From positions 64,001 through 128,000 of the forward strand of contig CAVUXE010000009.1 of the NCBI GenBank assembly GCA_963745235.1: a DNA stretch of 64,000 bases. Reading direction: 5' to 3'. Source of the stretch: an uncultured Spirochaetota bacterium (GTDB lineage: Bacteria > Spirochaetota > Spirochaetia > SZUA-6 > Fen-1364). Shown here in pieces: positions 11,929 through 37,448 of this stretch. Every line of letters starts with the position of its first letter. Position 1 is the stretch's first letter. Under the pieces are notes generated by a model. That model did not search any database and was not told the origin of the DNA. It saw nothing but the letters and a program-made list of their open reading frames with translations. The translations under genes and the position numbers were made by a program.

Positions 11929-13350
11929 CTACAGTTTGTCTACCAGGATCGAGCACTTTCCCGAGGGGATCGGGAGGGTCTTGCTGCGCGCCCCGAACAG
12001 GTCGATGGTGAGGTAGTACAGCTTCTCGCTCTCCAGGTGCACTTCCCATCCGCGGCTGCTCTTCGCGCTGAGTATGGAGATGAGATTCCTCTTCAAGGCC
12101 AGGTCCTCTATCCCCATCAGCTCCAGGGTGGGAATGGTCCAGTCCACTGTCTTGCGAGGAAGCGAGATGTTCAGCCCGATGATGTTTTCCAGCATCAAGG
12201 AGACGGTTGTCAGCGCCGTGTAAGGCACATACATCGTGCGGGGAAAGCCCTTCTTTCCCGGCCACCTGGCCGGGCCTTCCGTATGCGGCGCGTAGGCCTC
12301 GTACAGCGACCCGCGCTTTCCGTTGCCGGTGTACAGGCCGTCCAGCACGTGGTAGAGGTGGCGGATGGCGAACTCCCGGGCGAGGTCGTTGCGCTTGTAC
12401 TTCTCCAGCCCCTTGATGACCATGTAGTTGAACGGCGGGTACACGGAGCCGCGGAAACCCATTCCCATCGGATCAAACCTCTTGTCGCAGACAGCGAGCG
12501 TGGGGAAGGGGTTTTCGATGCCGAACTCGTGCGGGTCCACCAGGTGATCGATGAGCCTCTCACCCCGCGCCTCGTTGGGGATCTCCGCAAGCAGCGGCCA
12601 GAAAGAGGCAATCGTCTTCGTCTTCAGCCGCTTCTCCGACTCGTCCAGGTCGTAGTAGAAGCCGTCTTTCTCATCCCACATCAGGGCACTGATCTTCGTC
12701 TTCAGAGAGAAGTAGGCCTTCTTGTAGGCGTAGTTTGTTTCCTTGTCATTGATGATGTCGGCAAGCTCCGACATGTAGAGCGCTGCCAGGGCCATTTGCG
12801 AGTTGAAGTCGATCGGGTACGCCATTGCCTCGCGCGGGGAGTTCTCCATCATCGTTGCGGAAAGGGGCACCGAGTACAGACCGTTTTCCCTTTTGAAGGT
12901 CGTCTCGATCCAACGGTAGTACTTCTCCAGCACCGGCAGCACTTCCCGGATTCGCTTCTTCACCCCCAACTTGTGGTAGATGTTGTATTCGGCCCATGCG
13001 AAGAGGGGCGGGAGAACTCCCTTGGGGTTGTCCTTGGAATGAACGGGCTTTCCATCCGCCTCGCGATATTCCCCCCGGATTGCTCCGGTCTCCTCTTGCT
13101 TGGAATAGAAGTTGTCGAGGACCGACAGCACGGGAAATATCCTGTTCGAATAGACAAGGAAGAACGACGCAAAGCACGCGTCGAACTGGTTTATCCGCGT
13201 GCTTTCAGGGTGGCTGAAGAACCTGCTGTGGAAACCATTGACTGTTGTGCCCTTCTTCCAGAAGTCCTTGATCAGGATCCACGTTTCGTCATACAGCGCA
13301 ACCAGATCCTGATCGTAGAAGTGTATCTTCGGGAAGTCCTTTTTTACCAC
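11929..13350 (-). CDS. Glycoside hydrolase, trehalase/GH63 (MGH1-like) (alpha/alpha)6 family
   Basis: PPLFAWAE, MENSPR, LMWDEKDGFYYD, FRGSVYPPFNYMVIKGL. Confidence 0.75.
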   Translation of the reverse strand: MVKKDFPKIHFYDQDLVALYDETWILIKDFWKKGTTVNGFHSRFFSHPESTRINQFDACFASFFLVYSNRIFPVLSVLDNFYSKQEETGAIRGEYREADGKPVHSKDNPKGVLPPLFAWAEYNIYHKLGVKKRIREVLPVLEKYYRWIETTFKRENGLYSVPLSATMMENSPREAMAYPIDFNSQMALAALYMSELADIINDKETNYAYKKAYFSLKTKISALMWDEKDGFYYDLDESEKRLKTKTIASFWPLLAEIPNEARGERLIDHLVDPHEFGIENPFPTLAVCDKRFDPMGMGFRGSVYPPFNYMVIKGLEKYKRNDLAREFAIRHLYHVLDGLYTGNGKRGSLYEAYAPHTEGPARWPGKKGFPRTMYVPYTALTTVSLMLENIIGLNISLPRKTVDWTIPTLELMGIEDLALKRNLISILSAKSSRGWEVHLESEKLYYLTIDLFGARSKTLPIPSGKCSILVDKL

Positions 13351-13619
13351 TCACATTCCTCGCTCTCGGGGTCGTATTGTACCATGCCCTCTTCCGTCGT
13401 CAAACGCAATTTTCATCTCCGCATGGAAAAAGCGCGTGCCAAACGCGCCGGCCGTTGACGCCACAGGGAGTTTTCCTGAGTGAGGAAGCGGGGGTGCTCT
13501 GGAGGAAAATGTACGGCGAATCGACCTGCGTCGTCAAGTTTTCGACCCGCCCTTACCCGCCGTCTGCGCGGTTTCTCATCGTCCTTGACACGTATGGGAG
13601 CGCCGGGTTAACTACCGAC

Positions 13620-13898
13620 ATGGATCTGCAGGAGCTTTCCGCAACCGCACGCATGGCGCGGCTCTCCCTCACGCCGGTTGAGATGGAAAAGCTGGGGAAG
13701 GCTGTTGAGCAGATGCTCCAGCATTTTTCCCATATGAAGGAAATCGACGTTGAAGGCCTGTCGCCGACCACCCACGCGCTCCTGCGGGAAAATCGAACCC
13801 GTGATGATGCGGAGCGCACGGAAGACCTCTCTGCCGCGCTGCTGGAAAACGCTCCGCAGCGGGAAGAGCGCTTCATCGTCGTCCCGAACGTACTCTGA
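13620..13898 (+). CDS. gatC: Asp/Glu-tRNA amidotransferase subunit C
   Basis: ARMARL, IDVEGLSPT, TRDD, LENAP..FIVVPNVL. Confidence 0.9.
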   Translation: MDLQELSATARMARLSLTPVEMEKLGKAVEQMLQHFSHMKEIDVEGLSPTTHALLRENRTRDDAERTEDLSAALLENAPQREERFIVVPNVL

Positions 13899-13924
13899 TC
13901 ACCGCGCATCCCCCGGGAGGGGCA

Positions 13925-15397
13925 ATGGACTGGCACGGCACCGCGACAGCTGAAGGATCGCTGGAAAAGTGGAAGAACTTTGCGCAGGCGCGAAATAGGG
14001 ACCTGGGCTGTTTCCTCCAGCTGGACCCTGAGCTCGGTCGTACCTTGTGCATCCGCGCACGCAACGACCTCGCTCCATCCCTGGGGCGGAAGGCGGGCGT
14101 TGCGCGCCGGGAGCCCGTGGAGCTCGGGCGGGAAGGCTCCAGCGCGGACGGACCGCTCGCCGGCGTTCCTTTCGGAGTCAAGGACAACATTGCCGTTCGC
14201 TCGTTCCGTCTCACCTGCGGCTCGCGAATGCTTCGGGACTTCGTCTCCCCCTACTCCGCCACAGTCGTTGAACGCCTTGCACGTGCCGGCGCAGTAGTGG
14301 CGGGGAAGACCAACCTCGACGAGTTCGGGATGGGCTCATCCACTGAAAACTCTGCCCTGGCAGAGACCCGCAATCCCTGGGACACGAGGCGCGTTCCGGG
14401 AGGGTCATCAGGCGGGTCGGCCGCTGCGGTTGCCGCGGGGATCGTGCCTTTTGCCCTTGGAAGCGATACGGGAGGCTCCGTCAGGCAGCCAGCGTCTTTC
14501 TGCGGGGTCTATGGGCTGAAGCCGACCTGGGGTGCCGTCTCGCGCTTCGGGCTGGTGGCCTACGCTTCCTCACTGGAAGTGATCGGCGTCGTGGCCAAGA
14601 CGGTCGATTTTGCTGAACAGGCATTTTCAATCATGCGCGGGCAGGATGCCATGGACCACTCCTCGCTCCAATGGCAGCCCCCGGCGCAGAGGAAAGGGCG
14701 CCTTCGCATCGGAGTGCCTCGGCAGTGCGCGGATGTGCCCATGCACCCGGACGTGAAGAGGACCCTCGAGCGAACACGCGGCATGCTCGCGGACCTGGGG
14801 CACGGGATTGAGGAAGTCTCTTTCCCGACTTTCGACCACGTGGTCTCTTCCTACTATGTCATTGCGACCGCCGAGGCCAGTGCCAACCTGGCCCGGTTCG
14901 ACGGTGTGCGCTATGGACACCGTGCATCCCGGGCAGACAACCCGGAGGAGATGATGCTCCTCTCCCGCACCGAAGGCTTCGGGGACGAGGTCAAGCTGCG
15001 CATCCTCCTGGGCACCTACGTTCTCAGGTCCGGGTTCCAGGACGAGTATTACCTTCGCGCCCAGAAAATCCGCACGGCAATCAGGTTGGACTTCGAGAAG
15101 GCCTTTGCGGGAGTTGACCTCGTCCTGATGCCGGTCTATCCAGTGCCTCCGTTCGAGCGCGGCGGGGCGGATTCTGATCCCTTCTCTCAGAAGCTCGCGG
15201 ACATCTTCACGTGCTCGGCGAACCTTGCGGGGCTCCCTGCCATGTCGTTTCCCGCCTCGGTGGAGAACGGGCTGCCCATCGGCATGCAGTTCCTGGCCCC
15301 TCCCTTTGCCGAAGGGCTGTTGTTCGACATCTGCGGTCAGCTCGAGAAGACCTTTCCCTCCCCTGATGCACCCGGCTACCCGAAAGGCTGGGGGTGA
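13925..15397 (+). CDS. gatA: Asp/Glu-tRNA amidotransferase subunit A
   Basis: Amidase triad motifs VKDNI, GGSSGGS, SDTGGSVRQPA intact; EASANLARFDG. Confidence 0.95.
   Translation: MDWHGTATAEGSLEKWKNFAQARNRDLGCFLQLDPELGRTLCIRARNDLAPSLGRKAGVARREPVELGREGSSADGPLAGVPFGVKDNIAVRSFRLTCGSRMLRDFVSPYSATVVERLARAGAVVAGKTNLDEFGMGSSTENSALAETRNPWDTRRVPGGSSGGSAAAVAAGIVPFALGSDTGGSVRQPASFCGVYGLKPTWGAVSRFGLVAYASSLEVIGVVAKTVDFAEQAFSIMRGQDAMDHSSLQWQPPAQRKGRLRIGVPRQCADVPMHPDVKRTLERTRGMLADLGHGIEEVSFPTFDHVVSSYYVIATAEASANLARFDGVRYGHRASRADNPEEMMLLSRTEGFGDEVKLRILLGTYVLRSGFQDEYYLRAQKIRTAIRLDFEKAFAGVDLVLMPVYPVPPFERGGADSDPFSQKLADIFTCSANLAGLPAMSFPASVENGLPIGMQFLAPPFAEGLLFDICGQLEKTFPSPDAPGYPKGWG
14030..14127 (+). repeat. Copy of the tRNA-spacer hairpin repeat in frame within gatA
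   Basis: 14031-14090 aligns with 8851-8910; GAGCTCGG recurs 90 bp apart (14030 and 14120). Confidence 0.6.
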
Positions 15398-15400
15398 GCC

Positions 15401-17815
15401 ATGTATGCATCATTTCTCGGGCTCGAGGTCCACACCCAGCTCCTGACTCGCTCCAAGGTCTTCTGCAGCTGCCGAGCCGCTTTCGGTGATGAGCCCAACA
15501 GCAATGTCTGCCCCGTCTGCATGGGGTACCCGGGCGTGCTGCCGACGCTGAACGTTGAAGCAATCCGCATGGGCTACGTCGTGGCCCGAGCGCTGAACTG
15601 CACCCTCGCGTCTTCCACGATGTTCGAGCGAAAGAACTACTTCTATCCCGACCTTCCGAAGAACTACCAGATCTCGCAGTTCCGCTCCCCGTTGGGCACC
15701 GACGGGTGGGTCGAGATCGAGCTTCGAAAGCGCAAGAAGCGCGTGCGCATCCGCGAAGTCCACCTGGAGGAAGATGCGGGGAAGATGATCCACGCGGGGG
15801 ACATCACTCTCCTTGATTTCAACCGGACCGGGACGCCTCTCCTGGAGATCGTGACTCAGCCCGACATGGAAGTGGGGGAGGAAGCGGAAGTCTTCCTCCA
15901 GCATCTGCGGCGCTTGGTGCGTTATCTCGGCGTCTGTGACGGCAACATGGAGGAAGGCTCCCTGCGTTGCGACGCAAACGTCTCGGTGAACCTCGAAGGC
16001 AAGGGCCTGGGGAGCAAGGTGGAGGTGAAGAACCTCAACTCCTTCAAGTTCGTCCGAAAGGCCATCGTGTACGAGATAGAGAGGCAGACGGAGATCCTGG
16101 AGCGCGGCGGCTCCGTGACGCAGGAAACGCGCCTCTGGAATGAGAACCGCGACGTGACGGAGGGAATGCGGACCAAGGAAAGCTCATCGGATTACCGCTA
16201 CTTTCCCGAGCCTGACCTGCCGCCCTTTGTTCCCGACAAGGCGTTCCTGGCAACGGTGGAGGCCTCTCTTGTCGAGCTGCCCCAGGCCCGAAGGCGCAGG
16301 TTCATGGAAGAGTTCTCCCTCAGCGAGGACCAGGCTGATTACCTGTGCGAAGAGAAGTCCACCGCTGACTACTTCGAGGAGACGGTCCACCTGGGGGCTG
16401 ATCCGCAAAGCGCGGCGCTGTGGCTGGCCGCTGACGTGAAGAAGCACCTGAACAGGACGGGGGCCAGCCTGTCTGCGAGCCCGCTCACGGCCCGTCGCCT
16501 TGCCGAGCTCCTCAGCCTCCTTGCAGAAAAGCGCATCCACGGGAAGATCGCCAAAGGTGTCCTTGAGAAGGTTTTCGACGAGGACAAGGACCCCCGTGCG
16601 ATCATCCGCGAAAAGGGGTGGGAGCAGATCACGGACCCGGCGGCGCTGGGCGTCCACGTGGATTCCGTGATGAAGGCGAATGCCTCTGTGGTCGCCTCCA
16701 TCCGTTCCGGGGACAGCCGGCAGATCACCTTCCTGATCGGTGAGATCATGAAGGAGACTTCGGGCCGGGCTGATCCGATGCTCGTCCAGGGCCTGGTGAA
16801 GAAGAAGCTTGCCGTGTCGGTGATCCAGATCCTGTCCCTGGGGGGAGCGATTGTCGGCCGCGAATCCGAGCAGGGAGATGTGGTTGCGGGAGACCCTTCC
16901 GAGATCATGCGCGTGGTCGAGGAGGAGGGGCATTTCGGCAGGAAGATCGCCTTCGAGGAAGGTGAGGTCGGCAGGATCCTGAGCGAAGAAATCACGCCGA
17001 GGGACTGGACCCGCCTTGCGGCCGGCCTGGATGAGCACCTGCGCGGCGGCAGGGCATCAGGCATTGTCGTGACGCACGGCACGGATACGCTCGCCTACAC
17101 GGCGTCGCTCGTGTTCTGGCTTTTCTCCCGCCCTCCCGTGCCGATCGTCCTCGCGGCCTCTCTGTCGACACCGGGCAGGGAGAACGGGGATGCCGTCCCC
17201 ACCCTTCGAAAGGCCATCCAGACAGCGGCGGAGGCCGCCCCCGGCGTCTACGTCGTTTTCGGGAGCAAGGTGTTTTCCCCCGTGAACCTGAAGTTCGAGC
17301 GCATGACCGCGGACGGGTTTCGCAACTGGAACATGAAGAAACCCTGCCATACCGCCGGAGCGCTGTTCGACGACCTTTCCCTGGGGGGGGACCGGGAGAA
17401 GCTTCGCGCCCGCCTGGAAGCCGCGATCAACGCAACGCTCATTCTCCGGGTGTACCCCGGCATGCGGGGGGACCACCTCGTGGAGCTCATGGACCGCGGG
17501 GTCAGGAACTTCGTCCTGGAGCTCTATGACACGGGCACGGCAAACCTGCGAGACTCCCCGTATTCCCTTCGCCGCGTTTTCCTGGCCGCGCGGGAGAAGG
17601 GGGTGCATTTCTTCTGTACGTCCCAGCAGGAAGGGATTGTGGATTTTTCCCGCTACGCCAGCTCGCACGAGCTCTGGCGGGAAGGGGCCATTCCCATGGG
17701 CCCGCTCACCACGGAGTCCGCGTGGACAAAGCTTGTCGTGTGCTCGGCCTTCTCCGAGACCGAGGAGGAGATGCTGGCAAGAATGGAGCAGGGAAATGCG
17801 GACTCTTGTCTCTGA
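15401..17815 (+). CDS. gatB: GatB fused to a C-terminal L-asparaginase/GatD-like domain (804 aa)
   Basis: aa 1-470 GatB (GLEVH, RKNYFYPDLPK, HLEEDAGK, LRCDANVS, YRYFPEPDL, Yqey tail); aa ~472-804 LGGAI, SEEITP, VVTHGTDT, TTESAWTKL. Confidence 0.92.
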   Translation: MYASFLGLEVHTQLLTRSKVFCSCRAAFGDEPNSNVCPVCMGYPGVLPTLNVEAIRMGYVVARALNCTLASSTMFERKNYFYPDLPKNYQISQFRSPLGTDGWVEIELRKRKKRVRIREVHLEEDAGKMIHAGDITLLDFNRTGTPLLEIVTQPDMEVGEEAEVFLQHLRRLVRYLGVCDGNMEEGSLRCDANVSVNLEGKGLGSKVEVKNLNSFKFVRKAIVYEIERQTEILERGGSVTQETRLWNENRDVTEGMRTKESSSDYRYFPEPDLPPFVPDKAFLATVEASLVELPQARRRRFMEEFSLSEDQADYLCEEKSTADYFEETVHLGADPQSAALWLAADVKKHLNRTGASLSASPLTARRLAELLSLLAEKRIHGKIAKGVLEKVFDEDKDPRAIIREKGWEQITDPAALGVHVDSVMKANASVVASIRSGDSRQITFLIGEIMKETSGRADPMLVQGLVKKKLAVSVIQILSLGGAIVGRESEQGDVVAGDPSEIMRVVEEEGHFGRKIAFEEGEVGRILSEEITPRDWTRLAAGLDEHLRGGRASGIVVTHGTDTLAYTASLVFWLFSRPPVPIVLAASLSTPGRENGDAVPTLRKAIQTAAEAAPGVYVVFGSKVFSPVNLKFERMTADGFRNWNMKKPCHTAGALFDDLSLGGDREKLRARLEAAINATLILRVYPGMRGDHLVELMDRGVRNFVLELYDTGTANLRDSPYSLRRVFLAAREKGVHFFCTSQQEGIVDFSRYASSHELWREGAIPMGPLTTESAWTKLVVCSAFSETEEEMLARMEQGNADSCL

Positions 17816-19070
17816 GCTGGCGGGAAAGGTCGGCGCCGCTGTCACCGTGTGCGGCTGGGTCCACCGGATCAGGGACCTTGGCAAAGTGTCTTTCGTCGTT
17901 CTGCGGGACAGGAGCGGCAGCGTCCAGCTGGTGTTCGATGCGAGGCCCGACGTGACCCTGGAGTCAGTGGTGAAAGTGGACGGCACCGCCAGTGCCAACG
18001 AGAAGGCGCCCGGGGGCGTCGAGGTGAGAGTGCAGAACCTGGAGGTCCTCTCCCATGCCGCGCCTGATCTCCCCTTCCCCGTGAACCAGGAGCCGGGAAA
18101 GACCTCCCTGGAGTCCATCCTGGACAACCGCGTGATATCCGTGCGGAACCCCGCCATCCTCTCGATCTTTCGCGTTCAGTCCGCCATTCTCAAGAGCTTT
18201 GCGGAGCACATGAGAAAAGAGGGATTCACCGAAATCAAGACGTCGAAGCTCATCGGAACGGGGACCGAGGGAGGGACCGGCCTCTTCGCCGTGGAATACT
18301 TCGACACTCGCGTCTACCTCACGCAGAGCCCGCAACTGTACAAGCAGGTCATGATCGCCTCAGGCCTGGAGCGCGTCTTCGAGATTGGACCAGCCTACCG
18401 GGCGGAAAAGCACGACACGCCGCGACACATCAACGAGTTTGTCTCCCTTGACGTGGAAATGGCGTTCATCGATGGAGAGCAGGACCTGATGGATCTGGAG
18501 ACCCGGATTCTTTCTTCAATCTTCCATGAAGTCCGCTCCACCTGCCAGCAGGACCTCGACGCCTGGAAAGCTTCCGTTCCTGATCCCGAGCGGTGCGCAA
18601 AGATAGCGCGTGTCTCACACGACGAGGCCAAGGAGATCGTGTCCCGGGAGACCGGAAAGAAAGTGTACGAGATCACACCCGAGGCGGAGAGGTCCCTCTG
18701 CGACTGGGCCCAGAAAGAAACTGGCGTGGACGCCTGCTTCGTGTACGCGTACCCCAGAAAATCGCGCCCCTTCTATACTTTTCCGGCGGAGAACAACAAG
18801 ACACGGGCCTTCGACCTGCTTTTCCGCGGCCTGGAAGTGACATCCGGCGGCATGCGCATCAACCAGTATGACATGCTGGTTGAGAACGCAAAGACCTTTG
18901 GCCTTGATCCCGCGGGTCTCTCTGACTATCTGTCGATCTTCCGCTATGGATGTCCGCCGCACGGCGGGTTTGCCATCGGGCTGGAGCGGCTCACGCAGAA
19001 AATCCTGGGGCTTTCAAACGTGAAAGAGGCCACGCTCTTCCCGCGGGACCGAAAGAGAGTCAGGCCGTAG
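17796..19070 (+). CDS. aspS: Non-discriminating (archaeal/AspRS2-type) aspartate--tRNA(Asp/Asn) ligase
   Basis: ~424 aa with no GAD insert; GWVHRIRDLG, NEKAPGGVEV, QSPQLYKQ, YRAEKHDTPRH, PPHGGFAIGLERL. Confidence 0.9.
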   Translation: MRTLVSELAGKVGAAVTVCGWVHRIRDLGKVSFVVLRDRSGSVQLVFDARPDVTLESVVKVDGTASANEKAPGGVEVRVQNLEVLSHAAPDLPFPVNQEPGKTSLESILDNRVISVRNPAILSIFRVQSAILKSFAEHMRKEGFTEIKTSKLIGTGTEGGTGLFAVEYFDTRVYLTQSPQLYKQVMIASGLERVFEIGPAYRAEKHDTPRHINEFVSLDVEMAFIDGEQDLMDLETRILSSIFHEVRSTCQQDLDAWKASVPDPERCAKIARVSHDEAKEIVSRETGKKVYEITPEAERSLCDWAQKETGVDACFVYAYPRKSRPFYTFPAENNKTRAFDLLFRGLEVTSGGMRINQYDMLVENAKTFGLDPAGLSDYLSIFRYGCPPHGGFAIGLERLTQKILGLSNVKEATLFPRDRKRVRP

Positions 19071-19620
19071 GAGTAGGCGCGGGCCCCCCTGGTTCCCCGG
19101 CTTTCTTCTGGTGCTCGCTGATGTCCTCTGCGTCCCAGGGATAGCAGATCCAGCGGTCCTCCAGCTCCTGGCCGGCAAAGTATCTGCGTATCTCCCGGGG
19201 GATTTTGCCTTTCTTTTCTTTCTTCTTGTTGTGCAGAACGGCGATTGCGATTTCGCACGCCCCGTGGCGCAGCAGCTCGCGCAGGCAGTATTCCAAGGTG
19301 ACCCGCGAATCGTCAACCTCGTCCACCAGGAGTACCTTCCTCCCCGCGAGCTTCTTCTCGACCTCGTCGATCCATTGGATAGTGCGCGGCATCTTTGCGG
19401 GCTTGTTGTCAGGCCCGTAGTACGAGATCCCGACGGTCAGAATTGGCTTCTTCAGGAACGTCTTCAGGATGCGGGCGGGGATGAACCCGCCGGATCCGAT
19501 GGCCACGATGACATCCGGGTCGAAACCATCCGCGCGGATCTGCCCCGCCAGCTCCCGGATGGTCGTGTGTATCTGCTCGTAGGAAAGATAGTACCTGCCA
19601 TCGATGACCGGTGACACCAT
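19060..19620 (-). CDS. Purine (xanthine/hypoxanthine-guanine) phosphoribosyltransferase
   Basis: VAIGSGGFIPARILKTFL, PRPP motif VLLVDEVDDSRVTL, WICYPW. Confidence 0.85.
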   Translation of the reverse strand: MVSPVIDGRYYLSYEQIHTTIRELAGQIRADGFDPDVIVAIGSGGFIPARILKTFLKKPILTVGISYYGPDNKPAKMPRTIQWIDEVEKKLAGRKVLLVDEVDDSRVTLEYCLRELLRHGACEIAIAVLHNKKKEKKGKIPREIRRYFAGQELEDRWICYPWDAEDISEHQKKAGEPGGPAPTPTA

Positions 19621-19674
19621 GGAAGGCAAACAATAGTTGGATTCCCTACCCTGCGCAAGGGTCACCGTGATGAC

Positions 19675-20151
19675 CTACCTGTCTTCCAGCTTGAACCGCG
19701 CCCGCACGGCCTGGAAAAGGCCGTCGAGAAGCGGGTTCTGGGGGCCGCCAATGTGGGCGTCGGACAGGATGTCCCTCCGTTCCTCGGAGAGAACCTTGTA
19801 CAGCTGGCGCAGCGCATCGCTCTTTGTCTCGGCCGCATAGCAGATACGCACGATTCTCTTCAGCTCATCGAGATTCAGGACCTTGCGGCTCTGCCCGATT
19901 GTCAGGAAGAAGACCTTGCCGCCGTCCGACTCCTCGATCTCCACCCCCGCCGCCTGCGGCGTCTGTGTCTTGCGAGACCCCCGGATCTCCCCTGCCACCT
20001 TGTTGATCCGCTCCACACGGGCGTTGTGGATCAGGACACCGGCCTGCTGAAGGAGGAAGAGAAGGCCTTCCTCGTCGACTTCCTTGATGGCATCCCGCAG
20101 CTCCTTTTCCAGTTTTGCCCTGCGCTGGTCGACCTTCTTCTTTGTTGCCAT
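19675..20151 (-). CDS. Hypothetical protein
   Basis: Protein-like ORF MATKKKVDQRR...; TATACT 6 nt upstream of ATG. Confidence 0.6.
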   Translation of the reverse strand: MATKKKVDQRRAKLEKELRDAIKEVDEEGLLFLLQQAGVLIHNARVERINKVAGEIRGSRKTQTPQAAGVEIEESDGGKVFFLTIGQSRKVLNLDELKRIVRICYAAETKSDALRQLYKVLSEERRDILSDAHIGGPQNPLLDGLFQAVRARFKLEDR

Positions 20152-35689: not shown

Positions 35690-37448
35690 GTGCCAGACCC
35701 ATCACCCCATGGCCCTGCCCCCGCGCGGGACACAGCGCAAGGGGCGTCGACCTCGGACTTCATCCGCGACTTCGTCGCGGAGGATCTGAAGAGCGGCCGA
35801 TTCTCCCGCGTGCAGACACGGTTCCCGCCGGAGCCCAACGGATACCTGCACATCGGCCACGCCAAGGCCATGTGCATTTCCTTCGGCATCGCCGAGCAGT
35901 TCCACGGCAAGTGCAACTTGCGCTTCGACGACACAAACCCGACCAAGGAGGAGCAGGAGTACGTCGACGCCATCAAGGGTGACGTGAAATGGATGGGATT
36001 CGACTGGGAGGATCGGGAGTTCTACGCCTCCGACTATTTCGAGCAGCTCTACCAGTGGGCAGAGCAGCTCATACGAGCGGGCAAGGCATACGTGGATGAC
36101 CTCGACGAGAAGGAAATCCGCGAATATCGCGGGACCGACGTCGTGGACAAGGGCCCCATCACCGTCACGCCTCCGGGCCGCGACAGTCCGTACAGGAACC
36201 GCCCGGTGGAGGAGAACCTCGATCTTTTCCGCCGGATGCGCGCCGGGGAGTTCCCCGACGGGGCGCGGACGCTGCGGGCGAAGATCGACATGGCGCATCC
36301 CAACCTGCACATGCGGGACCCCGTCATGTACCGCATCCGCCACGCGTCGCACCATCGCACGGGCGACGCGTGGTGCATCTATCCCATGTACGATTTCCAG
36401 CATCCGCTCTCGGATTCCATCGAGGGGGTCACGCATTCCCTGTGCAGCCTGGAGTACGAGATCCACCGGCCGCTGTACGACTGGTTCCTGGAGCAGCTTG
36501 GCATCTTCCACAGCCGACAGATCGAGTTCGCGCGCCTCAATCTCACCCACACGGTTCTGAGCAAGCGCTGGCTGCTGGAGCTGGTCAGGGAAGGGCGGGT
36601 GAGCGGCTGGGACGACCCCCGCATGCCCACCATCGTCGGGCTGCGCCGTCGCGGCTACACCCCCGAGGCGCTACGGGACTTCGTGTCGCGCATCGGCATG
36701 TCAAAGGCGGACAGCACCGTGGATATCGCGCTGCTGGAGCACTGCCTTCGCGAGGATCTGAACAAGAGCTGCCGGCGGGCCATGGCGGTGCTGAGACCGT
36801 TGAAGCTCGTGATCGAGAACTGGCCCGCGGGAAAGGTCGAGGAGCTGGAGGCGGTGAACAACCCGGAGGATCCCTCCGCGGGCACGCGCAGGGTGCCGTT
36901 CTCCGGTGAGCTTTTCATCGAGCAGGACGATTTCCGCGAGGTACCGCCGCCCAAGTATTACCGGCTCTCCCCGGGGCAGCAGGTGCGGCTGCGCTACGGG
37001 TACATCGTGACCTGCACCGGCGTGAAGAAGAACCCGGCCACGGGCGCCGTGGAGGAGGTCCGCTGCCAGTACGATCCGTCCACCCGGGGCGGCAACGCGC
37101 CGGACAACCGCAAGGTGAAGGCCACCATCCACTGGGTCTCCGCGGCGCACGCGCTGAGCGTCGAAGCCCGGCTGTACGACCACCTTTTCCTTGCGGAGTA
37201 TCCGCAGGCGGTGCCGCCAGGCATGGACTGGAAGGACACCATCAATCCCGCCTCCCTGGAGGTCGTTCAGGGAGCCCGCGTGGAGCCGGGGCTTGCGTGA
37301 TGCAGCCGCAGGGGACAGGTTCCAGTTCGAGAGGCTTGGCTATTTCTGCGTGGACCCTGATTCGAAGAACGGAAAGCTGGTTTTCAACCGCACAGTGTCA
37401 CTGAAGGATACCTGGGCCCGGATAGAGAAGAGAGCGTCTCAGACCTGA
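35690..37448 (+). CDS. glnS: Glutamine--tRNA ligase, frameshift at ~37294
   Basis: [34 protein letters not shown]; C-terminus [18 protein letters not shown] in the next frame. Confidence 0.95.

Follow-up and report, generated by a model that had tools for sequence, protein, structure and literature searches.

An asparaginase-like domain with alanine at the nucleophile position is fused to GatB in Spirochaetota

GatCAB and the transamidosome are textbook machinery for the production of Asn-tRNA and Gln-tRNA, and GatB usually comprises some 475-500 amino acids (aa) and ends with its YqeY domain. What, then, does an entire asparaginase fold do at the end of a GatB? The question is raised by a 64,000-nucleotide (nt) stretch of DNA from an uncultured Spirochaetota bacterium (GenBank assembly GCA_963745235.1, contig CAVUXE010000009.1, positions 64,001 to 128,000; "the window" below is this whole stretch), in which positions 15401..17815 on the plus strand form a single open frame of 804 codons with an ATG start, encoding an 804-aa protein. 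This protein is an intact GatB that continues, without a linker, into a complete type-I-asparaginase fold, in which the nucleophile position is occupied by alanine. We propose, with what we judge to be an even chance of being right, that the added domain would serve as a dimerizing, nonhydrolytic module on GatCAB that binds an α-amino acid, a proposal that combines a dimer reading with a ligand reading. The open reading frame (ORF) is divided as follows.

15401..16813, plus strand: gatB core (aa 1-471), with cradle, helical and YqeY tail domains, recognized by GatB equivalog models and Pfam
16814..17815, plus strand: asparaginase-like domain (aa 472-804), in the same ORF as gatB, recognized by Pfam Asparaginase and Asparaginase_C

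Four Pfam models matched the 804-aa protein above their gathering scores, namely, GatB_N (residues 6-282, E 1.5e-113), GatB_Yqey (residues 323-470, E 7.6e-41), Asparaginase (PF00710; residues 475-646, E 2e-28), and Asparaginase_C (PF17763; residues 681-790, E 1.8e-10). Three GatB models were also passed: the NCBIfam equivalog NF004012 over residues 2-471 (613 bits against a cut-off of 338), NF004014 (596.3 bits; cut-off, 414), and TIGR00133 (552.1 bits; cut-off, 314.8). The GatB matches stop at residue 470-471, and with 804 aa the protein exceeds the usual GatB length. The motifs GLEVH, RKNYFY, HLEEDAGK, GTPLLEIVT, DANVS, and DYRYFPEPD are all present and are common to all group-1 relatives (see below); those of the cradle domain, invariant in alignment A2, carry the His/Glu that bind metal and the Lys/Tyr located where the channel ends. 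The fused gene gave the only GatB match in its genome and, to judge from its sequence, this sole GatB is catalytically competent. When the full-length protein was modeled with AlphaFold2, the last helix of YqeY (residues 459-470) passed straight into the first strand of the asparaginase fold (residues 472-479) with a predicted local distance difference test score (pLDDT) of 77-81 for the block, and there is therefore no flexible linker between the two; the predicted template modeling score (pTM) of this model, 0.53, is too low for the relative orientation of the domains to be read.

Could two genes simply have been read as one through an assembly or gene-calling artefact? When aa 472-804 were used as a query against proteins of 442-1407 aa, 724 matches were obtained at E<=1e-3; all 120 of these that were listed carry PF00710 together with PF02637, most are 800-810 aa long, and the source labels of the fused matches, where named, read GatB of Spirochaetia. 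An exhaustive search of cluster representatives returned 39 matches at E<=1e-30, of which those of ~790-817 aa align at about 470-800; the shorter representatives inspected carry the end of a GatB in front and hence are cut gene calls. A clear gap follows the fused matches, after which come stand-alone asparaginases and GatD at ~30% identity. Among 401 sampled Spirochaetota genomes, 30, the window's own included, had a match, and 11, again including the window's and all in its class, encode the fusion as a single frame of 786-850 aa (2 more have fragments); complete single-contig genomes are among those with the single frame. A scan of one genome per species yielded 66 Spirochaetota loci, in Treponema, Gracilinema caldarium, Alkalispirochaeta, and many metagenome-assembled genomes (MAGs), at which the GatB and asparaginase parts are contiguous in one frame. 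Below these loci, matches of 27-34% identity were scattered over 14 unrelated taxa, none with an adjacent GatB. No stop and restart was seen at the junction in any relative. The fusion that the first-pass annotation had read from the window alone is thus real, and we give next to no weight to an artefact. It is also common in public Spirochaetota genomes, with hundreds of relatives. Compared with the closest locus, L023, the domain has a ratio of nonsynonymous to synonymous substitution rates (dN/dS) of 0.131 and the GatB core one of 0.096, and the domain is under purifying selection.

We then considered the active site. The catalytic residues of class 1 asparaginases are Thr12, Tyr25, Thr89, Asp90, and Lys162, with Thr12 as the primary nucleophile (PMC8948990, PMC8256714). 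At the nucleophile motif the window protein reads L480-G481-G482-A483-I484; Ala483, encoded by GCG at 16847-16849, aligns with the nucleophile Thr of 1wls (GMGGTIAS). H559-G560-T561-D562-T563 is kept (T561 and D562 codons, 17081-17086), as is N629-L630-K631-F632-E633-R634 (K631 codon, 17291-17293), and T561, D562, and K631 stand opposite Thr, Asp, and Lys in the alignments to 1wls and 4q0m, such that the (3)Thr-(4)Asp-(5)Lys set is present. Residues A483, T561, D562, and K631 had been singled out before, and all lie at the positions then given for them. The substitution of Thr by Ala, also claimed earlier, is real and conserved across the family: Ala occupies the nucleophile position in 94 of 98 full-length homologues, in 92 of the 97 proteins of group 1, the group with canonical GatB motifs, and in every readable group-1 row (24/24; the window protein plus 23 loci). 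The stand-alone asparaginases and GatD proteins of the same search read GGT, the GatD rows TGGTIAS.

The surroundings of the lost nucleophile have been retained. HGTDT is invariant in the 98 full-length homologues (98/98), and S528, E529, D562, T563, N629, T713, S741, and Q742 are conserved in all three groups of the family. Ser528-Glu529 aligns with Ser-Thr of the Thermococcales asparaginases and corresponds to Ser58-Gln59 of E. coli asparaginase II, a pair that binds the substrate. Asp493 stands opposite the loop Tyr of 1wls (GERGY); Tyr752 is conserved and lies within the predicted dimer interface described below, and type 1 asparaginases may take their active-site Tyr from the C-terminal part of the partner subunit (PMC8256714). 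The nucleophile therefore looks to be the sole residue clearly lost from the active site. A relocated nucleophile at Ser/Thr489 was considered and rejected: the position has a hydroxyl in 96 of the 98 close relatives, but Gly, Ala or others in distant members. Because the defining nucleophile was tested for and is absent, the domain should not be counted as a functional member of the asparaginase or GatD family.

An active second amidase would be redundant if the usual glutaminase is in place. The fused gene is flanked as follows.

13620..13898, plus strand: gatC (92 aa), first gene of the operon, with its ATG at 13620 (TIGR00135, 65 bits; cut-off, 47.1)
13925..15397, plus strand: gatA (490 aa), amidase-family glutaminase subunit (TIGR00132, 505.8 bits; cut-off, 481.1; Pfam Amidase, E 3e-133)
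17796..19070, plus strand: aspS2 (424 aa), archaeal-type aspartate--tRNA(Asn) ligase (NF003483, 525.1 bits; cut-off, 353)
11932..13350, minus strand: GH63/MGH1-like glycoside hydrolase, divergent neighbor that serves as a synteny marker only (Pfam MGH1-like_GH, E 7.8e-35)

In GatA, the amidase-signature stretches GVKDNI, GGSSGGSAAAVA, and GSDTGGSVRQPA, presumably the carriers of the Lys-Ser-Ser triad, are present and the signature is intact. As the first-pass annotation had argued, a second amidase is not needed because GatA is intact. The same annotation had called the adjacent gene a nondiscriminating AspRS, and the NF003483 score agrees; aspS2 also passes TIGR00458 aspS_nondisc (418.5 bits against a cut-off of 368.4). 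The gatB and aspS2 frames share 20 nt, from the aspS2 ATG to the end of gatB, and GGAG lies upstream of this start. The arrangement is kept in the group-1 loci scored for neighbors, with gatA upstream in 22 of 22 and aspS2 directly downstream in 21 of 22, the contig of the last ending first. A longer ORF from 13377 fits the GatC model in its last 72 residues only, and for the plus strand no usable prediction came out of scanning 13300-19800 for promoters and terminators. As a separate observation, the first ~70 residues of GatA (13925-14140) are not covered by the Amidase and gatA models, which match from residue 72-74 onward; either the N terminus is extended or the called start codon is too far upstream.

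The gene content of the genome specifies what this operon is likely to make. The window genome (5.85 Mb, 104 contigs) is 85.7% complete, so absences are provisional at that level. It encodes AsnRS (471.3 bits) and GlnRS (635.4 bits), both above cut-off, and a separate bacterial-type AspRS on contig C54 (NF001750, 814.1 bits); no AsnB scored above cut-off, AsnA was not found, and a search for another asparaginase-like gene found none. An ARAGORN scan detected one tRNAAsn(GTT) with U1-A72 and G73, and tRNAAsp with G1-C72; the U1-A72 pair of tRNAAsn is required by bacterial GatCAB (PMC4206432). The complete group-1 genomes G380 and G332 have the same inventory, with AsnRS and GlnRS present and neither AsnA nor AsnB found. 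Given the nondiscriminating AspRS, the co-occurrence of AsnRS and GlnRS, the failure to find AsnA or AsnB, and the U1-A72 pair, gatC-gatA-gatB~domain-aspS2 reads as a tRNA-dependent Asn-synthesis operon of the Thermus/Deinococcus style. Nondiscrimination by AspRS2 is inferred from its family assignment, and the operon is predicted to make Asn-tRNA(Asn) from Asp-tRNA(Asn), the only Asn-synthesis route found in the genome.

Two synthetase genes call for brief comment. The GlnRS gene of the window is an ORF at 35690-37300 (536 aa) that passes the glnS cut-off; the last ~45 positions of the glnS model fit another frame at ~37284-37418, and the read-through match spans 2 TGA codons, so the 3' end (window 35690-37418) may contain a frameshift or an assembly error. 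Besides AsnRS and the operon AspRS2, G380 and G332 each have a third class II synthetase gene resembling AsnRS/AspRS2 (G380:C1:3598267-3599520 and G332:C1:3599910-3601169); this third gene scores 177-209 bits to the asnS model, below cut-off.

In Thermus and Deinococcus, GatCAB and a second, archaeal-type AspRS exist only for Asn synthesis on tRNAAsn (PMC2330236, PMC4206432). The window genome resembles Thermus thermophilus and Deinococcus radiodurans in having GatC, GatA, GatB, an archaeal-type AspRS, AsnRS, GlnRS, a bacterial AspRS, and a tRNAAsn with U1-A72, and also in that AsnA and AsnB were not found in it. It differs in that its GatB bears ~330 extra residues of asparaginase fold, in that its four genes form one operon with overlapping gatB and aspS2 ends, and in its lineage, Spirochaetota; in the survey of 18 genomes reported in PMC4206432, a second AspRS occurred only in Deinococcus-Thermus. 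What is already known here is GatB and the Thermus/Deinococcus-type operon; what is new is the accessory pseudo-asparaginase domain.

We next asked whether the domain could be an active second amidase that hydrolyzes Asn or Gln and provides GatB with ammonia, in the manner of GatD with GatE. GatD, itself homologous to asparaginases, serves a GatB-like subunit in this way (PMC2330236), and both the fold and the Thr-Asp-Lys set are retained here; moreover, in group 2, the divergent group described below, 32 of the 52 loci have Ala at the nucleophile position, 9 have Thr, 8 have Ser, and 3 have another residue. However, GatD uses the Thr as its nucleophile (PMC2330236), and this is the very residue that is Ala in the group-1 rows and proteins counted above. 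An intact GatA is encoded next door, and an active asparaginase would destroy the product in a genome where the operon is the only predicted source of Asn. A further argument is that the domain is not sister to GatD. We therefore consider an active amidase very unlikely, and of the roles suggested by the first-pass annotation, that of an alternative ammonia source is unlikely because the primary nucleophile is missing in nearly all close relatives, leaving ligand sensor and oligomerization scaffold as the two most plausible.

The same annotation had called the protein a GatCAB/GatDE-like hybrid. The likeness is one of parts: archaeal GatDE, too, combines an asparaginase fold with a GatB-type subunit, and the GatD homodimer forms the core of the complex (PMC2330236), a dimer being predicted for the window domain as well. 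In contrast to GatDE, the window encodes a single chain in which the asparaginase fold follows GatB, GatD's Thr is Ala, and GatA and GatC are present. As for ancestry, the GatD models NF003217 (103.2 bits against a cut-off of 310; best stretch residues 466-620, model positions 69-220) and TIGR02153 (102.6 bits; cut-off, 324) both failed and cover the N-terminal half of the domain only (model positions 69-220 or 50-208). In a sequence search of the Protein Data Bank (PDB), 4q0m was the best match (E 1.7e-30), ahead of GatD 1zq1 (E 1.5e-17) and AnsA 2p2d (E 2.8e-14), and the Thermococcales asparaginases 4q0m, 1wls, and 5ot0 were the best matches of solved structure, at E 1.7e-30 to 2.6e-28. A tree placed the 72 fused domains in one clade (SH-aLRT 100) and five verified GatD sequences in a clade of their own (SH-aLRT 100) inside the outgroup; it was a quick LG+G4 tree of 97 rows with long-branch warnings, for which 25 of ~110 stand-alone matches served as outgroup and five partial loci (L024, L053, L064, L086, L087) were left out. 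Descent of the domain from GatD is thus not supported by model scores, PDB search, or this quick tree, and the hybrid does not hold as a statement of ancestry: the GatD clade is separate, the GatD models match in part and below cut-off, and the Thermococcales enzymes are closer.

With those enzymes the domain shares both subdomains, and the motif before the nucleophile in 1wls likewise starts with Met/Leu and not Thr; the Thermococcales asparaginases read GGT where the window reads GGA, and the window domain is not free-standing. It also failed the type I asparaginase model TIGR00519 (108.8 bits; cut-off, 260.5). An AlphaFold2 model of the domain (pLDDT 79.8, pTM 0.85) found 5ot0 as its best Foldseek match (E 2.3e-18; template modeling [TM] score, 0.75), with type I enzymes at TM 0.73-0.76 and GatD at rank 6.

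The family has three branches, of which groups 1 and 2 were defined by GatB-core identity, neighboring genes, and GatB motifs and are described here partly by the same features. Group 1 consists of the window and 24 loci (22 of the 66 species-scan loci plus L019 and L021 of G380 and G332), all with every GatB motif kept. Group 2 consists of 52 loci, mostly Treponema-type (L012-L018, L020, L031, L033-L036, L038-L044, L046, L048, L049, L051, L054-L057, L059-L067, L069, L070, L072-L075, L078-L085, and L087), at which the fused gene stands alone without gatC, gatA, or aspS2. The group-2 GatB core is only 30-45% identical and scores below every GatB cut-off, and its motifs have been replaced: His to Arg (LEVRI), Glu to Arg (LRIRT), with RKNYFY and FPEPD lost. 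YqeY and the asparaginase-like domain remain well conserved in this group, GatB_Yqey scoring 126.7 bits against 139.9 for the window, while GatB_N scores 137.1 against 379 bits. Group-2 copies are probably misannotated as GatB and probably are no GatB enzymes; their genomes usually have a canonical GatCAB elsewhere.

The GH63/MGH1-like gene lies upstream on the opposite strand in 18 of 22 group-1 and 34 of 44 group-2 loci, and because both groups share this divergent neighbor, the group-2 gene is the positional counterpart of the window gene, with gatC, gatA, and aspS2 lost from the locus. The group-2 neighbors (GH63-like, TPR, DHH, Ppx, and Ppk) provided no functional lead. An idea taken from G317 and G305, that regain of Thr or Ser in group 2 is tied to loss of GatA, was rejected for want of a clean link: among 28 further group-2 genomes, MAGs whose completeness was not established, GatA was found in 11 of 14 with Thr/Ser and in 13 of 14 with Ala. 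Two complete genomes carry an unfused gatA-gatB-aspS2 operon beside a group-2 fused gene (G323:C1:1085869-1090144, L103; G347:C1:523561-527905, L104); compared with the window, these unfused operons have GatB at 56-57% and AspRS2 at 57-61% identity. The dual copies suggest duplication followed by a division of labor. The third, deep branch (P0148, P0156, and P0158, with the fragments P0151, P0153, and P0154) has canonical GatB motifs, and its nearest Atlas clusters are commonest in Spirochaetota, the phylum being known for 11-14 members.

Could the domain be a dead fold without a small-molecule ligand, which only dimerizes or stabilizes GatCAB or its complex with AspRS2 and tRNA? A homodimer model of the domain reached ipSAE values of 0.87, 0.86, and 0.87 in three runs, compared to 0.00 for the best of 3 controls; the runs agreed in at least 87% of contacts, with a partner pLDDT of at least 85. 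In calibration, 20 of 30 proteins with a structure solved as a pair came up to the mark applied, against 1 of 23 with a single-chain structure; the run used a custom alignment, and since asparaginase dimers have already been solved, the pass may reflect likeness to them. The predicted interface is that of the classical intimate dimer, with HGTDT, the Ser-Glu-Glu segment, LELYDTGT, and TSQQ at the seam. Its 62 residues include 20 of the 59 most conserved columns, compared to an expected ~11. This dimer, the linker-less junction to the YqeY tail, and the fact that the deep branch keeps the domain without the second Thr and the Lys would all suit a pure scaffold, and there is precedent for a stabilizing partner in the archaeal-type AspRS, whose binding stabilizes Thermus GatCAB (PMC4206432). 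On the other hand, the invariance of HGTDT in close relatives and the conservation of the Ser-Glu, Asp-Thr, and C-terminal pocket motifs in all groups are not readily explained by scaffolding, and removal of the nucleophile alone is a selective pattern unexpected of a mere scaffold. We regard a pure scaffold as possible, though doubtful.

The joint persistence of YqeY and the domain raises another alternative, in which the YqeY tail and the asparaginase-like pocket hold, protect, or edit the aminoacyl end of Asp-tRNA(Asn) or Asn-tRNA(Asn). These two parts are the unit that stays conserved in the decayed group-2 proteins, and the domain is rigidly joined to the tRNA-binding tail. However, such a role has no known precedent, and the asparaginase pocket binds a free α-carboxylate, which is esterified in aminoacyl-tRNA. 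We consider this role quite unlikely.

We therefore return to the dimerizing, ligand-binding module. Here the domain would no longer hydrolyze Asn or Gln; it would form the classical intimate asparaginase dimer, as in the model, and GatCAB would become a dimer of heterotrimers, matched to the dimeric AspRS2, in which the geometry of the two GatCAB units and their tRNA-binding tails is fixed. The old active site would still bind an α-amino acid, with the kept C-terminal-domain motifs closing the pocket across the dimer, and binding would couple the assembly or activity of the Asn-transamidosome to amino acid supply. Asn would be the prime candidate for the natural ligand, because free Asn is expected to come only from uptake or turnover and to be reused by AsnRS; a signal that Asn is available would sensibly tune the costly on-tRNA route. 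The Foldseek match list includes two PDB entries, 7c8x and 5dnc, whose titles describe engineered Thr-to-Ala asparaginase mutants holding bound Asn; such mutants serve to keep Asn in place uncleaved. In the Asn-regulated, allosteric E. coli AnsA, which belongs to the same fold family, the fold can bind Asn as an effector and alter its quaternary structure (PMC8948990, PMC8256714). AnsA, unlike the window domain, is catalytically active, and its allosteric Thr162 aligns, by a motif reading only, with Leu630; the same allosteric site is not evidently kept. An extended version of the proposal, which we advance tentatively and consider unlikely in its entirety, is that a natural substrate trap, an asparaginase with its pocket complete but the attacking Thr gone, was recruited as an Asn sensor and switches how a dimeric GatCAB-AspRS2 transamidosome assembles or binds tRNA, and that the YqeY-plus-sensor module persists in Treponema-type genomes as a stand-alone regulator after decay of GatB catalysis.

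Several observations weigh against a ligand-binding module of this kind. Position 631 is Lys in 77 but Arg in 21 of the 98 full-length homologues, and in the deep branch the motif is HGLDT and the Lys is gone (NLRM/NLQM); the family as a whole thus does not maintain the pocket chemistry, which favors a purely structural role. Conservation of pocket residues could simply mirror their place in the dimer interface. A simple inhibitory sensor is awkward, in that feedback inhibition of GatCAB only would cause Asp-tRNA(Asn) to accumulate. Finally, since Treponema-type genomes retain the gene at a locus that has neither gatCA nor aspS2, the role of the gene cannot be assembly of the Asn-transamidosome only.

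A full-text literature search, which did not cover subscription journals and supplements, found no description of a GatB-asparaginase fusion and no characterized regulatory or accessory domain on GatB. The locus had been put forward as an undescribed system, a claim that should be toned down: the fusion is frequent in public genomes under the plain label GatB. Two aspects had escaped the first-pass annotation: the dedicated Asn-synthesis route, which coexists with AsnRS and GlnRS in this genome, and the branch with a decayed GatB half. Our findings suggest either that amino acid supply feeds back on on-tRNA biosynthesis or that bacteria independently arrived at a GatD-like dimeric amidotransferase core. 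If the Asn-sensor reading is true, this would be the first small-molecule-regulated tRNA-dependent amidotransferase, and on-tRNA synthesis of Asn would be tuned against the reuse of free Asn by AsnRS. The family offers a clean natural case of an enzyme fold apparently turned into a noncatalytic module by loss of one residue, and hundreds of database entries named plain "GatB" conceal the extra domain.

Two minor observations concern the genes around and beyond this family. The pairing of the GH63/MGH1-like gene with the gatB fusion is unusually stable, occurring at 52 of the 66 Spirochaetota loci with 53-89% identity and with no evident functional link. A 698-aa "GatB family" Atlas cluster, commonest in Bacillota, represents another GatB fusion, with a tRNA_anti-codon OB-fold on 71% of its members.

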